Virus record (IMG/VR): IMGVR_UViG_2706794670_000014
DNA length: 39,161 nt
Strand: one strand, 5' to 3'
DNA from: a virus
Lineage: Duplodnaviria; Heunggongvirae; Uroviricota; Caudoviricetes
Below the pieces are notes generated by a model, which made no database searches, was not told the origin of the DNA, and worked only from the letters and a program-made list of their open reading frames with translations. The position numbers were made by a program, and so were the translations under genes. Of the stretch, positions 11,331-17,417 are shown piece by piece (the stretch's first letter is position 1; every line of letters begins with the position of its first letter).

Positions 11331-12672
11331 TGATCACCTCCACGCTGCGGCCACCCGGAACAAAAACCGGATCGGGGATATTGTTTCTGCGGACAAAATA
11401 CTGCCAGCGACTGCTGTTGCCGGTGGCACGGTACAGCGTGACCAGTGCCGGTTCGGTGGTGCGAACCATGACCTGAAAAGCACCGGGAAGATGCACGCTC
11501 CGTGTGGTTAAATCTTCTGTCAGCGCAAGCCCTGCATCACGTAATGCAAGGGCAGTCCCGGTATAGCCCTGTGCGGACAGATCCAGCACCTGTTGTTCCA
11601 TGGCATCGCTCAAATCCCGGTTGATACGCTGCACATCAGCAGAACTTTCCAGCCAGGCCAGTCCGCCCGAACGGTCAGTATCCTGAACGTGCGTCGTATT
11701 CTGCCGGATGACCTGATCCAGCAGTTTTCCGAGCGTCTGTGCCTGCGACACCAGGGTTGCACTCTGCATCACGCTCCGCAGCAGACGGATATTTTTCTGT
11801 GCCGCAGGCGTCAGGCCAATCAGGCGCTGTGGATCATCCTGTTCGCTGAGGGTGTAACGCAGGGAGGAAAGTGTGCGGTACAGCTGCGGCATGGCCTGCT
11901 CTGCCATGCTGTCACGGTTTGTGGTCAGGCTGCCGGACGGCGTTCCGGCTTTTCCGGTCAGAGACAGGGAAGGATCGCCGGGCAGCCCGGTCAGCACGGC
12001 AAACATTCCGGCCAGCGATTCAGCCATGCGACGGGGCGCATTAATCAGGGCGGCGGCATTGCCTTTCAGGGCAGTAAAACTGGCCGTAAAGGCACTGATA
12101 TCCTGCACAATCCCCATCCCCGAAACGGCATTCTCCAGTGCATCAATCTTATCGCTGATGGTGTCGGTCATGGCCTGTACATCATGCAGACCGTCTGAAA
12201 TCACCGTCCAGCCGTCTGAAAGCGTGTTAAACAGCTGATTCATTGCTGAGCCGCTTTTCTGCTCCAGCGCAGCTGCCGTATCTTCTGCCACCGCAGGGGC
12301 GGTATCGTCACTGGCGGGGATCACGTTGATCGTGAACTCAACCGTTCCCTGCTCGCTGGCGTTATAACGGCTTTCAAAGCTGTTTATCAGCACGTTTAAC
12401 GTGCCGTAATCCGGGTGCATCAGTTCACCGGCACCGGGTGCACGCAGCGCATCACGCAGGCGGCTTCGCTGTGTCTGAAGATCGTCTCCGGTCACCAGAA
12501 CCGTGAATGTGAACTCCGGGAGTTTTGGCCCCAGATCATCCGCACCGCCGCTTTCACGCAGTGGGTATTCACGGCGCACAATGTTACGTCCGCCCCGTTC
12601 CCGCTGCTCCTGATAAACCAGGAACGGTACGCCACGAAAGGAGCCACGCCCCGGCGTGTCAGTAGAGGCCAT
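11314..12672 (-). CDS. DNA circularisation protein N-like (Mu gp43-like)
   Basis: N-terminal SFRGVPFLV motif and position directly after the tape measure gene. Confidence 0.6.
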   Translation of the reverse strand: MASTDTPGRGSFRGVPFLVYQEQRERGGRNIVRREYPLRESGGADDLGPKLPEFTFTVLVTGDDLQTQRSRLRDALRAPGAGELMHPDYGTLNVLINSFESRYNASEQGTVEFTINVIPASDDTAPAVAEDTAAALEQKSGSAMNQLFNTLSDGWTVISDGLHDVQAMTDTISDKIDALENAVSGMGIVQDISAFTASFTALKGNAAALINAPRRMAESLAGMFAVLTGLPGDPSLSLTGKAGTPSGSLTTNRDSMAEQAMPQLYRTLSSLRYTLSEQDDPQRLIGLTPAAQKNIRLLRSVMQSATLVSQAQTLGKLLDQVIRQNTTHVQDTDRSGGLAWLESSADVQRINRDLSDAMEQQVLDLSAQGYTGTALALRDAGLALTEDLTTRSVHLPGAFQVMVRTTEPALVTLYRATGNSSRWQYFVRRNNIPDPVFVPGGRSVEVISEQQD

Positions 12673-12752
12673 AGTTCCCTCCGTTCCAGACGTTCACATC
12701 CAGGCCATGCTGTGCGGTATCATCCACATCAATACTGCGCGCCCGCCAGCCT

Positions 12753-14714
12753 TCAGGGGCAACAAGCTCCACCCGNNNNNNNNNNNNNNNNNNNNNNNNN
12801 NNNNNNNNNNNNNNNNNNNNNNNNNNNNNNNNNNNNNNNNNNNNNNNNNNNNNNNNNNNNNNNNNNNNNNNNNNNNNNNNNNNNNNNNNNNNNNNNNNNN
12901 NNNNNNNNNNNNNNNNNNNNNNNNNNNNNNNNNNNNNNNNNNNNNNNNNNNNNNNNNNNNNNNNNNNNNNNNNNNNNNNNNNNNNNNNNNNNNNNNNNNN
13001 NNNNNNNNNNNNNNNNNNNNNNNNNACCGGCCCACAGGGCACCACCACCCAGCCGACCGGCACCACGGAACAGCCCGGCAAAACGCCCCAGCCCCATGCG
13101 GTTTCCGGCCGCCGTTAGCAGACCACCGGCACGGCTCATCATACGACCGAAGAAGCCCTGTTTACCGGCACTCTCCGCCAGTTGCTCACCGGCAGTCACG
13201 ACGGTCGTGACACCCCGTCCACGTCCGGGGCCGCGTTTTTTACGGCCGCGCACGGTTTTGCCGTCACCGCTGACCACCACATCCCCGCCACCTGAGGCCA
13301 GGCCACCCGCAGGCCAATTGGTGACCAGCACGGGCTGAACGGCAGCCGGATTTACCCCGGTAAGGAAATTCAGGAACCGGCCAGCGCGTCCGGGCTGCGT
13401 TCCCGGTACAGTGGTCTGCGGTTTGCGGAAGGGCGACGTCAGCACGGAGGTCATCGCCATGCCATAGCGTAAGGGGGTTGCGCCGAGACGTAATGCCCCC
13501 GTCCCCGCAAACCTGAGCACCTTCAGCGCACGGGAGGCGAGATACATATACATCAGGTACTTTGCGGCGGTCTGCGCACCCTGACCAATGCGATCCAGCG
13601 CATCGCCATAACCGGCGTCGCGCAGTGCCTGAAGCGTTTCCCTGACTTTCTGAATGACCCGGTAAAAGCCGGTCGCAGCGTCTCTGGCATACTCAAATCC
13701 CTGATTCAGGGCTGAGGCCGTCTGTGTGGCCAGCTTATCCTGTAAGCCGCTTTTCTGTGCCGCATCAGCATAATCCAGAAAGCCTTTCAGGCTCTTTTTC
13801 AGGCTGTCAAACGGTCCCTTTGCCATCACCTCGCGGGCAAATCCGTCCCAGACATCGCCCATCATGGACGTCATTCCCGTCCAGGAATTCATGGCGTTTT
13901 TCTGGGCACCTTTTGCCTGTTCGGCCATCACCTGAAATAACAGGCGAATGCTGTCCGGTCCCAGTTTTCCTTTCTCGCCTTTCTCACGGATGATCTTCTG
14001 GTTTACACCCAGCTTATCGGCCAGCAACTGGTAAACGTTAATCCCGTATCCGGTCAGAATATTGGCGTCCGCTGCCTGGATACTCTGGCGGGCAAACATC
14101 TGTTTGAGTTGCAGGGACGCACCCTGTGCATCTGACAGTGACCAGCCGTGATAGCCGCCCTGATCCTGAAGCATGGTAATAAAGCGACGGGCTTCCCTGT
14201 CACTCATACCGAACCCGCGACTGGAGGCGTATTCCTGCATAACCCCCGCCAGCCCCCAGGTGGTGTCTTTGGCGTTCTGTACCGCCCAGGCTTTCACTGC
14301 TTCCGTTTTTGCCGTATCGCCATGATTAATGGCGTTGAGACGCAGAATATAGTTCTCCATCTCTGCGGCCGGGCGGATAAAGGCTTTATTAAACCCGTAG
14401 ACCGCAGCCCCTCCCGCCAGCATCCCGTAAAGGTTGCTTATCCGCCCGATGGTGCCGGTAATGCTGCCCTGAAGGCGGTCAAAATCTGACGTCACCGTGC
14501 GGATACTGCCACGAACACCGGCAAGCGTTCGCTGCATACGGGAGCCGACAAGTTCTGTCTCCTGACCGGCACGACGTGCTGCATTTCCAAGACCACCCAG
14601 CCCCGTCCTGCCGGAACGGGAGAATGCCCCCAGCTCCTGTGACCACTGGCGGGATTTGGCAGAAATATTGCCGAGTAAATCGACAATCAGGGAGGCTTTC
14701 AGGTTTTTTGCCAT
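12753..14714 (-). CDS. Tail tape measure protein; C-terminal part masked by N
   Basis: Long Gly/Ala-rich ORF between the tail tube and baseplate genes. ATG at 14714. Confidence 0.7.
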   Translation of the reverse strand: MAKNLKASLIVDLLGNISAKSRQWSQELGAFSRSGRTGLGGLGNAARRAGQETELVGSRMQRTLAGVRGSIRTVTSDFDRLQGSITGTIGRISNLYGMLAGGAAVYGFNKAFIRPAAEMENYILRLNAINHGDTAKTEAVKAWAVQNAKDTTWGLAGVMQEYASSRGFGMSDREARRFITMLQDQGGYHGWSLSDAQGASLQLKQMFARQSIQAADANILTGYGINVYQLLADKLGVNQKIIREKGEKGKLGPDSIRLLFQVMAEQAKGAQKNAMNSWTGMTSMMGDVWDGFAREVMAKGPFDSLKKSLKGFLDYADAAQKSGLQDKLATQTASALNQGFEYARDAATGFYRVIQKVRETLQALRDAGYGDALDRIGQGAQTAAKYLMYMYLASRALKVLRFAGTGALRLGATPLRYGMAMTSVLTSPFRKPQTTVPGTQPGRAGRFLNFLTGVNPAAVQPVLVTNWPAGGLASGGGDVVVSGDGKTVRGRKKRGPGRGRGVTTVVTAGEQLAESAGKQGFFGRMMSRAGGLLTAAGNRMGLGRFAGLFRGAGRLGGGALWAGXXXXXXXXXXXXXXXXXXXXXXXXXXXXXXXXXXXXXXXXXXXXXXXXXXXXXXXXXXXXXXXXXXXXXXXXXXXXXXXXXXXXGGACCP

Positions 14715-14841
14715 GGGTTACTGCTTCGTTCTGAGAATTTTTTCGGTCTGTCGGCAGTGCCGGTAAAGCTGCGATAAGGGGAGGTTAAGCGCCCACTCCG
14801 GGCCGCTTTTTGTCACCATCCCCAGCACAATTGCGGCTTCT

Positions 14842-15318
14842 TCAATCTGATCCCGGCACTGCATCTGGTCGCCCCCGTTCAGCGACCAGCTTTCCGGCCA
14901 TCGCGGAATCAAGCAGGCTTACTGCCGCCATCAGTCGGGAGAGATCGCGCTCGCTGAGCTGTCCTATCTGACGCGGAGACAATGGCCCCTCAATCTGGCC
15001 GACAGCGGCAATCTGACGGCGCAGCAGCGCAATGCCGCGCAGTGCCGGTGAGGCCACAAGAACCGGACCGTTTCGGGTTTCCATAAGACGCTCGGCCTCG
15101 CTCTCCGCATCAATGCTGTCTTTTGCCGTCAGTTCGCGGAAGGTGACGCGGTATTCACGGGATTCCCCGAACGGCAGACCGTCGAGCAGATCCACATAGC
15201 CGTTCGCCAGTTGTTCAGCCAGCCCGGCGGTGCGGGGATCGCCGTCTTCAAGTGCATCCCGGATAGCCTCCATCACGGCCTCGTCAGAAACCGCCGTTTT
15301 TTTCTTACGTGTGCTCAT
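14842..15318 (-). CDS. Tail assembly chaperone-like protein (Mu gp41-like)
   Basis: Position between the tail tube and tape measure genes. AGGAAAAA RBS. An overlapping +1-frame ORF (14718..14912) reaches the tape measure start. Confidence 0.5.
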   Translation of the reverse strand: MSTRKKKTAVSDEAVMEAIRDALEDGDPRTAGLAEQLANGYVDLLDGLPFGESREYRVTFRELTAKDSIDAESEAERLMETRNGPVLVASPALRGIALLRRQIAAVGQIEGPLSPRQIGQLSERDLSRLMAAVSLLDSAMAGKLVAERGRPDAVPGSD

Positions 15319-15332
15319 TACATTTTTCCTGA

Positions 15333-15698
15333 TTACTGGACACGGGTACTGGTGGCGCTGGCGAACTTCGCGGAGATATCACCACCACCGTCAAGCGAGG
15401 CCGGTTCACTGCTCCAGGCCTTCGTCATCATGTGGACTTCACCGGTATCGGCCACGAACTCAATCGTGACCGCAGTCCAGGTGTTGATTTCATCGGCAGC
15501 CGGTGAACCTTCTCCGCCCGCCGGGAATTTACAGTCCAGCGTCGCCTCACGGGGTTTCTCGCGATAGCCGTAAACTTTCGCGCCTTTCACCACTTCACGC
15601 TCAAAGCCGGACGGGGAGAACGTGGCCCCCTCAAGGGTGTCGTACTCCTGCCCGTTCACACGGATGGTGGCCGTGCCCTGATACTGTTTTCCGCTCAT
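15333..15698 (-). CDS. Tail tube protein (Mu M-like)
   Basis: 121 aa directly after the sheath gene. GAGGTAAGG RBS. Confidence 0.7.
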   Translation of the reverse strand: MSGKQYQGTATIRVNGQEYDTLEGATFSPSGFEREVVKGAKVYGYREKPREATLDCKFPAGGEGSPAADEINTWTAVTIEFVADTGEVHMMTKAWSSEPASLDGGGDISAKFASATSTRVQ

Positions 15699-15706
15699 GC
15701 CTTACC

Positions 15707-17098
15707 TCACAAAATGAAACGGATCTGCGCGGCCATGAAGCGGAACTGGTTAACCAGATCCGGTGTACACATCACATCCAGACGGTTACGGTCTTTTGTG
15801 TTGCGCTCCACGAGCAGATTCTTTTTAAAGGTGTCCAGATTTTCGACCAGTCCCAGATCCACCCATTCTTCCCCCAGCGAAATTAACTGAAGTTTCATGA
15901 TCTCCGGTGTCACGATATTCTGACCGGCACGAACGGGCGTCCCGTCATCAGCCAGTTTATGGCGCGGAAAACGCTGCGTGATAAAGGTGCGCAGGGAATA
16001 ACGCAGATATGACAGGGTGTAGATGGTTTCCACATCCAGATAGCTGGGATCGATTTCGCCGTATGCATTCTGACGGTACATCGTCACCTGACGTTCAATC
16101 TGCACCACATCCGCGGCCGCGACGGTCACCGTGGACATGCCGGTATAAAGCAGGCTGTTTCGCTCTTCCCGCGTCAGACGATCCGGTGCTTCAGGTGCCA
16201 TACGGGCAGGCAGCGCCAGTGTCTGTAATGGTCGGGCCGGATCCGTTGACAGGGAGGGCGCACAGACCGCACAAATGGAGGCAGCCCAGACATAATCCGG
16301 CTCTGGTGCTTTAGGAATAGAAGTGCAGGTAAACAGGAAGTCATTACGGGATTCACCAAAACTGGTTGCCGTACCGAAGGTGCCGGTATGCGCCATCCAG
16401 ACCATACCGTCCGACATTTTTACCGGTCCCCAGCGTTTCAGCAGTTCATCCGCCAGAATTTTGAGATTTGCCGCATCCTTATAGGGCATGACGATGTAGT
16501 TGTACTGACGATTCCCCATCCCTGAGACGCTACGGGTGATATCGGGGTTTGTTGCCTTCTGTGTTGGCGCGACGAGCTCCAGCGTAAGACCGGCCGGTGT
16601 AGTTTCACCGTCATAATAGTTCACCCGTAAATCATGAGCTGAGCATTCACCGATAAAGCGGGCGTTAACCCCCATGCTGCCTTTAAGTCCTTCAGCATTA
16701 TCACCACTGACTTCAGCTGCGATAGCAGTGAATGGCGCATCAGTGTCAGCGTTAATGACCTTAGCCAGCTCTTCCACAAGCTCTTTACCTTTTTTCCCCT
16801 TACTGACGGGCAGGAGGTAACGGCGACCGCCGATGTAAACACTTAACACCCCGTCTGCCAATGCTGTTCCAATGATATTCATCACGCATGCCCTGGACTG
16901 ACCTGTTCCAGCCCCCTGTGCAATGGCATATAACTCTGTGTCAGGGTTAATGGCGATAAATTCCTCTACCATCAGTGCAATCATGGAACCTCGCCCCCAG
17001 AGTTCTCTTGCTTGTGAAGCTCGGGTAATACGTACTGGTACATCAAGCTGACCGCGCCCCTGAATGGTAGTGTCTTTCATTGCAGCCTGACCAAACAA
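15707..17098 (-). CDS. Contractile tail sheath protein (Mu L-like); N-terminus lies in a masked block
   Basis: 463 visible residues with sheath-like composition, followed by the tube gene. N-run 17129-17378 hides the true start. Confidence 0.8.
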   Translation of the reverse strand: MFGQAAMKDTTIQGRGQLDVPVRITRASQARELWGRGSMIALMVEEFIAINPDTELYAIAQGAGTGQSRACVMNIIGTALADGVLSVYIGGRRYLLPVSKGKKGKELVEELAKVINADTDAPFTAIAAEVSGDNAEGLKGSMGVNARFIGECSAHDLRVNYYDGETTPAGLTLELVAPTQKATNPDITRSVSGMGNRQYNYIVMPYKDAANLKILADELLKRWGPVKMSDGMVWMAHTGTFGTATSFGESRNDFLFTCTSIPKAPEPDYVWAASICAVCAPSLSTDPARPLQTLALPARMAPEAPDRLTREERNSLLYTGMSTVTVAAADVVQIERQVTMYRQNAYGEIDPSYLDVETIYTLSYLRYSLRTFITQRFPRHKLADDGTPVRAGQNIVTPEIMKLQLISLGEEWVDLGLVENLDTFKKNLLVERNTKDRNRLDVMCTPDLVNQFRFMAAQIRFIL

Positions 17099-17128
17099 CA
17101 GTACCGCCTGACGCTGTGGTGGAGTGCC

Positions 17129-17417
17129 NNNNNNNNNNNNNNNNNNNNNNNNNNNNNNNNNNNNNNNNNNNNNNNNNNNNNNNNNNNNNNNNNNNNNNNN
17201 NNNNNNNNNNNNNNNNNNNNNNNNNNNNNNNNNNNNNNNNNNNNNNNNNNNNNNNNNNNNNNNNNNNNNNNNNNNNNNNNNNNNNNNNNNNNNNNNNNNN
17301 NNNNNNNNNNNNNNNNNNNNNNNNNNNNNNNNNNNNNNNNNNNNNNNNNNNNNNNNNNNNNNNNNNNNNNNNNNNNNNCAGGCATCCCGGCGCAGGTTTA
17401 ATAAAAATGGTTGTCAT
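17129..17417 (-). CDS. 5' end of a gene with a strong RBS (either the sheath N-terminus or a separate small gp38-like gene); body masked
   Basis: ATG at 17417 with GAGGAA upstream. Its frame differs from the sheath ORF across the N-run, so continuity cannot be decided. Confidence 0.3.

Follow-up and report, generated by a model that had tools for sequence, protein, structure and literature searches.

[quoted passage not shown]

The DNA analysed here, referred to below as the window, is a stretch of 39,161 nucleotides (IMG/VR record IMGVR_UViG_2706794670_000014) and is an Escherichia coli Mu-like prophage. On the basis of the open reading frame (ORF) list and of Pfam and PHROGs matches, the minus-strand genes follow the order tail sheath, tail tube, a gp41-like chaperone gene, an extension ORF and the tape measure protein (TMP) gene (Table 1), and the RefSeq name of the last, downstream gene is 'tape measure protein'. 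Relative to frame 0 of the chaperone gene, the second frame (+1, equivalent to -2) is open from just past a TAA at 14921-14919, has its first TTG at 14912 and runs to the TAA at 14720-14718. The ORF in this frame overlaps the final 77 nt of the chaperone gene, and 3 nt (CCC) lie between its stop codon and the tape-measure ATG at 14714. The original prediction had placed a +1-frame ORF overlapping the 3' end of the chaperone gene at 14718-14912, and these coordinates are exact, on the minus strand; the 'four nt' that it gave before the tape measure start correspond to the distance from 14718 to 14714, with 3 nt actually intervening. Within the overlap, no promoter or terminator was found.

Table 1. 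Coordinates of the genes and of the predicted recoding features in the window
Feature	Coordinates	Strand	Remarks
Tail sheath gene	15707-17098	-	
Tail tube protein gene	15333..15698	-	5' neighbour of the chaperone gene; Pfam Tail_tube PF10618, E 3.4e-30; phrog_185
Chaperone gene, frame 0	14842..15318	-	Mu gp41 homologue, 158 aa; ATG 15318, TGA 14844-14842
Predicted shift site GAA CGG GGG CGA	14869..14880	-	12-mer same as in phage Mu
Core octamer GGGGGCGA	14876-14869	-	
Putative P-site codon GGG	14874-14872	-	
Putative A-site codon CGA	14871-14869	-	
Putative -2 re-pairing target GGG	14876-14874	-	
Extension, -2/+1 frame	14718..14873	-	51 codons, GGC 14873-14871 to Gln 14723-14721, then TAA 14720-14718
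Predicted fusion CDS	complement(join(14872..15318, 14718..14873))	-	14873-14872 would be read twice
ATG in the extension frame	14862..14864	-	Candidate internal start, 6 nt after the G-run; non-conserved
Tape measure protein gene	12753..14714	-	3' neighbour, target of the chaperone; ATG 14714; Pfam TMP_3, E 2.8e-18; phrog_973, E 1e-161

Nine masked runs of about 250 N each are present in the window (for example, 12776-13025 and 17129-17378). The length of an N run is not faithful to the underlying sequence: the corresponding stretches measure 253 nt and 320 nt in the near-identical genome of strain JE86-ST05. Since the N runs do not preserve length, ORFs that cross them, namely the 3' part of the TMP gene and the 5' part of the sheath gene, are unreliable. 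In fact, the actual sheath gene is 1503 nt long, and its start lies inside a masked run.

With 111.2 bits (cut-off 27; E 3.3e-32), the 158-aa chaperone is a member of the Pfam family Gp41_Mu (PF23746), and its PHROGs match is phrog_508 'tail assembly chaperone' (E 5e-45). It shows approximately 50% identity to Mu gp41 and is entered in RefSeq as 'phage tail assembly protein' (WP_000107489.1). Similarly, the 64-aa ORF in the extension frame matches phrog_12783 (E 9.6e-39), and its 51 codons 3' of the site align with the extension of the Mu fusion protein FS-gp41 at 52% identity and 83% positives (E 1e-21). Beyond the frame-0 stop, dN/dS is 0.06-0.43 in the extension frame and about 0.5-7 in the other two frames; twelve pairwise comparisons were made, and the range 0.06-0.43 comes from the ten pairs with unsaturated dS. 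The predicted -2 fusion comprises 149 + 51 = 200 aa with the junction ...LVAERG-GDQMQCR..., and when modelled it is colinear with Mu FS-gp41 (P0DJY4), with no gap at the junction (50% identity over 167 aa, E 8e-58). In the Pfam search, no family covering the extension was found, and among solved structures there was none related by sequence to the fusion.

An ORF of this size is by itself not beyond chance, as dozens of ORFs of 30-100 aa occur in this G+C-rich window; the core octamer, with 2 matches against 1.74 expected in the window, is also by itself at the chance rate. What places the feature above chance is conservation, that is, the phrog_12783 match, the frame-limited purifying selection and the presence of the motif in 80 of 82 loci (see below). 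Judged by this conservation, the extension ORF is a genuine coding sequence. Consequently, the earlier reading of the locus as a frameshift-extended tail assembly chaperone is borne out in its family (Gp41_Mu), in its Mu-homologous extension and in the amino-acid conservation of the +1-frame ORF among relatives (phrog_12783, dN/dS and identity to Mu as given above). The -1 frame, on the other hand, is open only from 14878 to the TGA at 14815-14813, 20 codons past the site, which leaves 99 nt up to the TMP gene; how far it continues beyond the frame-0 stop is unconserved among relatives and lies between 1 and 127 codons, or 1-32 when a single lineage is set aside. The statement that a -1 shift runs straight into a stop was thus too strong, in view of these 20 codons, but the frame is a dead end, as had been supposed.

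The slip site was surveyed in 82 distinct gp41-family loci, which were taken from annotated phages (Mu, D108 and SfMu, plus Yersinia, Pasteurella, Klebsiella, Alteromonadaceae, Shewanella and Vibrio phages) and from IMG/VR loci collected with three different seeds. The candidate site that had been proposed, GGG CGA at 14874-14869, forms codons 149-150 of frame 0 here, and GGG CGA is present in frame 0 in 80 of the 82 loci, from Enterobacteria, Pasteurella, Vibrio, Shewanella and Alteromonadaceae. In these 80 loci it falls within the final 2-19 codons of frame 0, and every one of them (80/80) has, 3' of it, an ORF in the +1/-2 frame that is 45-52 codons long and stops at the start of the tape measure gene. 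CGA was also correctly described as rare, since 4% of the Arg codons are CGA in the 34 long ORFs of the window. The base directly 5' of GGG (nt -1) is G in 80/80 loci, and the counts at nt -2 are 71 G, 7 A and 2 C. The codon before GGG is CGG in 65 loci, AAG in 6, AGG in 5, TCG in 2, CAG in 1 and GGG in 1; its amino acid varies, it is untranslated in the extension frame, and neither overlapping protein accounts for the invariance of the nt -1 G. The overlap windows of the loci intersect only on the motif, at -8 to +8 around GGG, where the -8 bound is set by L037 and L102 and the +8 bound by L129 and L141. The latter two loci have the frame-0 stop directly after CGA (CGA TAA and CGA TAG), an overlap that could not be any tighter.

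Four G only, with AAG, CAG or TCG before GGG, are found in ten of the 80 loci, L060-L065, L067, L100 and L101 being from such clades. There, the -2 re-pairing would have a first-position mismatch, so that the direction of the shift is less certain and +1 is possible in those clades, which would provide natural test cases for whether -2 and +1 vary within the gp41 family. Two loci depart from the motif. L130 (1340-1360) reads CGG GGG GAG, where CGA is missing and the G-run has six bases. In L093 (1540-1700), the same site is found minus one G, and a second G5-to-G4 loss occurs 60 nt downstream, so that homopolymer miscalls are most likely, rather than a natural hard-wired fusion.

Two kinds of additional stimulator were considered and rejected. 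A stimulatory RNA structure downstream of the site found no support, since the fold of the window sequence is no better than that of its shuffles (z +0.73) and RNAalifold gives 0 pairs 3' of the site across 24 diverse loci; an upstream Shine-Dalgarno (SD)-like stimulator was discarded because upstream conservation is limited to GA at -6/-5. A full-text search of the literature with the motif string returned only unrelated matches. The second in-frame copy of the octamer in the window lies in the tail sheath gene, at 16991-16998 on the minus strand (CTC TGG GGG CGA GGT). A -2/+1 shift at this copy would meet a stop once 4 codons had been read (GEVP*), and a few per cent of sheath translation could be lost in this way. 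The copy is unconserved in Mu, which has FGQG where WGRG is found here, and it is probably there by chance.

Comparison with the homologous region of Mu, to which the original prediction had pointed, is informative about the direction of the shift. The site reads CAA GAA CGG GGG CGA GTG in Mu and GCT GAA CGG GGG CGA CCA in the window, with 12 nt identical; GAACGGGGGCGA is identical in both, and the extensions that follow are homologous. Xu, Hendrix and Duda reportedly described the programmed -2 frameshift of phage Mu gp41 in 2004. The Mu GenBank record is annotated 'verified -2 translational frameshift in PMID 15469818', and Mu is cited as a natural prokaryotic case of -2 frameshifting, at approximately 2.2% (PMC5009743; PMC3498833; PMC2628397); the experimental basis of the Mu '-2' is known here via the GenBank note, UniProt and reviews. 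By exact-sequence look-up, the -2 Mu fusion (...QERG-GEWLRC..., 188 aa) is the same as UniProt P0DJY4 'FS-gp41' and GenBank UIW09302.1, including the extra Gly, and no deposit of a +1 fusion from Mu's own gp41 sequence was found by the same kind of look-up. The same protein cluster holds two 187-aa single-ORF fusions of the +1 type (P0002 and P0008), both from Logan assemblies; these assemblies have lost one G of the run, and the two ORFs are consequently fused directly. As a bare 10-mer, the Mu site gave 14% shifting in a purified translation system, in an assay that cannot separate -2 from +1 (bioRxiv 10.1101/2025.10.02.679949); the Mu 10-mer sequence is absent from the supplement of that paper. 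That the bare 10-mer shifts in a purified system fits the absence of a conserved downstream structure.

The survey also bears on direction. The invariant G at nt -1 favours -2, as it would be the middle base of the new P-site codon, whereas a +1 slip onto GGC has no use for that G. From these comparisons, the shift direction here is most likely -2, not +1, and we argue that -2 may be the ancestral mode across the gp41 family rather than an oddity of Mu. It had been claimed that +1 is the only route into the extension frame; in fact, a -2 shift reaches the identical frame. The placement of the Gly codon GGG in the P site with CGA in the A site stands, but the proposed forward slip onto GGC is probably wrong, in view of the -2 annotation of the Mu homologue and of the nt -1 G in 80/80 loci.

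Taken together, the locus is best read as a Mu-type programmed -2 ribosomal frameshift by which two tail assembly chaperones would be made from one gene, a reading to which we assign a probability of roughly 0.85. We infer that this prophage shifts like Mu and that two domains split the labour, with direction and efficiency carried over from Mu, whose protein is only 50% identical. Most ribosomes would reach the stop of the gp41-like ORF and release the 158-aa protein as the major product, and a small fraction, by homology, would shift. In these ribosomes, the peptidyl-tRNA-Gly would sit on GGG 14874-14872 in the P site, and the A site would hold the rare and presumably slowly decoded Arg codon CGA 14871-14869. 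CGA is read through a poor I:A wobble. Once the tRNA detaches, it may re-pair two bases upstream on GGG 14876-14874, a re-pairing made possible by the run of five G. The next A-site codon would then be GGC 14873-14871. In E. coli, GGC is decoded by an abundant Gly tRNA. Fifty further codons after GGC would be translated before the TAA at 14720-14718, just before the tape-measure start, giving the 200-aa fusion.

The functional part of the model is drawn from lambda, the source of the analogy being the published model of gpG/gpGT function (PMC5009743). By this analogy, the shared N-terminal part would coat the tape measure protein, and the extension, as the 'T-like' C-terminal domain of the predicted fusion, would recruit the tail tube protein, its presumed binding partner, and nucleate polymerisation of the tube around the tape measure; neither form of the chaperone is expected to stay in the virion. 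In the Mu virion structure paper, gp41 is not resolved, which is compatible with a role in assembly only.

Among the alternatives, a +1 frameshift survives best. The Gly-tRNA would slip from GGG to GGC while CGA waits in the A site, and a 199-aa fusion (...AERG-DQMQCR...) would result. This re-pairing is possible at the site and arrives in the same frame as -2, and sequence alone is compatible with it. A rare A-site codon is moreover a classic +1 stimulus (PMC10885494), +1 is used for this gene pair in some dsDNA phages (PMC5009743), reporter assays on the Mu 10-mer are blind to the difference between -2 and +1, and in the four-G loci the -2 and +1 re-pairings have one mismatch each. However, the Mu site, with the same 12-nt context, is recorded as a verified -2, the named Mu fusion proteins contain the extra Gly, and the nt -1 G of all 80 loci, which points to -2, occupies a position, synonymous or variable in amino acid, of which a +1 slip makes no use. 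A +1 shift at this site is thus considered improbable.

Another possibility is that no frameshift occurs: translation starting at ATG 14864, with the G-run as its Shine-Dalgarno sequence, would yield the extension as a protein of 48 aa in its own right. The G-run (14862-14876 region) does pair with the anti-SD at -8.6 kcal/mol with a 6-nt spacing, which is in the top 3.3% of local windows and exceeds the SD pairing at the starts of the gp41-like gene (-4.3) and of the TMP gene (-1.4), and gene callers have marked separate small ORFs here (D108 gene 41.5, E. coli M3 WP_001149937.1 and phrog_12783). Across the family, however, an ATG at this offset is present in only 22 of 80 loci, and any ATG, GTG or TTG within 4-22 nt in 37 of 80; the position is GCG in the closest relatives (90% identical), CTG in Mu and AAG in the Shewanella and Vibrio types. 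G GGG CGA is by contrast near-universal, and the fusion is documented in Mu. Since the internal start is unconserved, it cannot be the conserved route, and its being the sole source of the extension is more improbable still than a +1 shift. Alongside the preferred -2 frameshift, the ATG 14864 start may add a minor free extension peptide here. A bolder version of this idea, which we regard as doubtful, is that the G-run is doubly used, as the -2 slip site and as the SD for ATG 14864, so that chaperone, fusion and a free 48-aa peptide would all be made here and in 22/80 relatives; in an equally doubtful variant, the four-G clades or this site would yield a mix of -2 and +1 fusions differing by one Gly.

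The fusion could also be encoded by a minority of mRNAs if RNA polymerase added two G or dropped one in the G5 run. The site is a homopolymer, and G4 assemblies with a direct fusion exist (L093, P0002 and P0008), so the run is indel-prone at least in sequencing. Such transcriptional slippage is nevertheless very unlikely: the annotation of the Mu record is for a translational event, shifting at the bare 10-mer was obtained in a translation system, a polymerase model assigns no role to the invariant CGA, and five G are far below the length of known A/T slippage runs, programmed bacterial transcriptional slippage being known from A/T runs of 7-9 or more (review PMC5009743). Lastly, a chance ORF in G+C-rich sequence, with the 158-aa protein as the sole product, would agree with the many spurious ORFs of similar size in the window, the chance-rate octamer and the lack of a RefSeq annotation there, but it is effectively refuted, on comparative evidence, by the phrog_12783 match (E 1e-38), the purifying selection specific to the extension frame, the 45-52-codon extension ending at the TMP start in 80/80 loci and the homology to the Mu extension.

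Over the 801 nt surrounding the site, the window matches E. coli strains JE86-ST05 and 600029 at 100% identity, and of 5426 complete E. coli genomes, 228 have the region at an identity of at least 80%. This prophage's fusion is absent, in its -2 and +1 versions alike, from a 15-billion-protein collection. In the five RefSeq records inspected (including D108), the 127 nt from chaperone to TMP (here 14715-14841) are either empty or occupied by a stray 'hypothetical protein'; the E. coli M3 record has such a separate call in this stretch. In JE86-ST05, which is 99.98% identical over the unmasked positions 13026-17128, PGAP marks the TMP gene as a 'frameshifted' pseudogene of 2059 nt (L120:3687-5745), while the gene is intact, at 2058 nt, in strains 600029, HH35 and M3. 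The JE86-ST05 break falls within the stretch that is masked in the window (TMP region about 12656-14714). A TMP pseudogene in a genome of 99.98% identity implies that some copies of the prophage may be defective.

In general, this is a known mechanism in an unannotated Mu homologue, and it will be unsurprising to a specialist in recoding or phage assembly. Its practical value is for annotation, as predictors such as PRFect have no -2 model. That G GGG CGA is near-universal in Mu-like myophages of several gammaproteobacterial orders, with no conserved RNA structure, is modest evidence on the mechanism.

Among known systems, the arterivirus nsp2TF site (G GUU UUU) is likewise a natural programmed -2 shift and gives one more amino acid than +1 would (PMC5009743). 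It differs in that it is eukaryotic, shifts at approximately 20%, requires a protein complex that binds downstream and acts in trans, and has another slippery sequence, and there is no homology. A slip in the P site next to a slow A site, into the same relative frame, would be shared with Listeria phages and SPP1, in their tail or structural genes, and with E. coli prfB (RF2) (PMC3498833). Those +1 events are proven by protein sequencing, whereas the Mu homologue of the present site is -2; in addition, prfB has a stop codon in the A site and an upstream SD, whereas here no conserved upstream SD-like stimulator is seen.

In the lambda gpG/gpGT and P2 gpE/gpE+E' pairs, overlapping ORFs immediately 5' of the TMP gene give two chaperones that share an N-terminus and are made at a fixed ratio, an arrangement like the one here, and their presumed functions, TMP binding and recruitment of the tube protein, would be the same (PMC5009743). 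The Pfam family Phage_TAC_7 ('E, or 41 or 14') also gives a weak match here, of 23.6 bits, below the cut-off of 25. The mode of shifting is different, however, since in lambda and P2 the slippage is tandem, in the -1 direction, on an X XXY YYZ heptamer (lambda G GGA AAG), and the present site is predicted to use a single-tRNA -2 slip on a G run before a rare codon. The locus also falls outside the -1 definition of the lambda G/GT type, with the -1 frame a dead end and the conserved ORF in the other frame.

The closest counterpart is Mu gp41/FS-gp41 (P0DJY4; GenBank Mu_41 and Mu_56), which belongs to the same Pfam family Gp41_Mu and occupies the same place between tube and tape measure, here within a contractile-tail module. 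The site GAA CGG GGG CGA is identical in both, and the Mu extension has 51 codons, as here, and likewise stops beside the start of the TMP gene. Several differences exist: Mu gp41 lacks the N-terminal 32 aa of the present protein, frame 0 continues past the site for 8 sense codons here and for 6 in Mu, the overlap window is 77 nt here and 38 nt in Mu, and the in-frame ATG after the site is CTG in Mu. Every defining feature of the Mu gp41/FS-gp41 cassette that can be tested by sequence is found in this prophage, and the fusion protein is predicted to be made.
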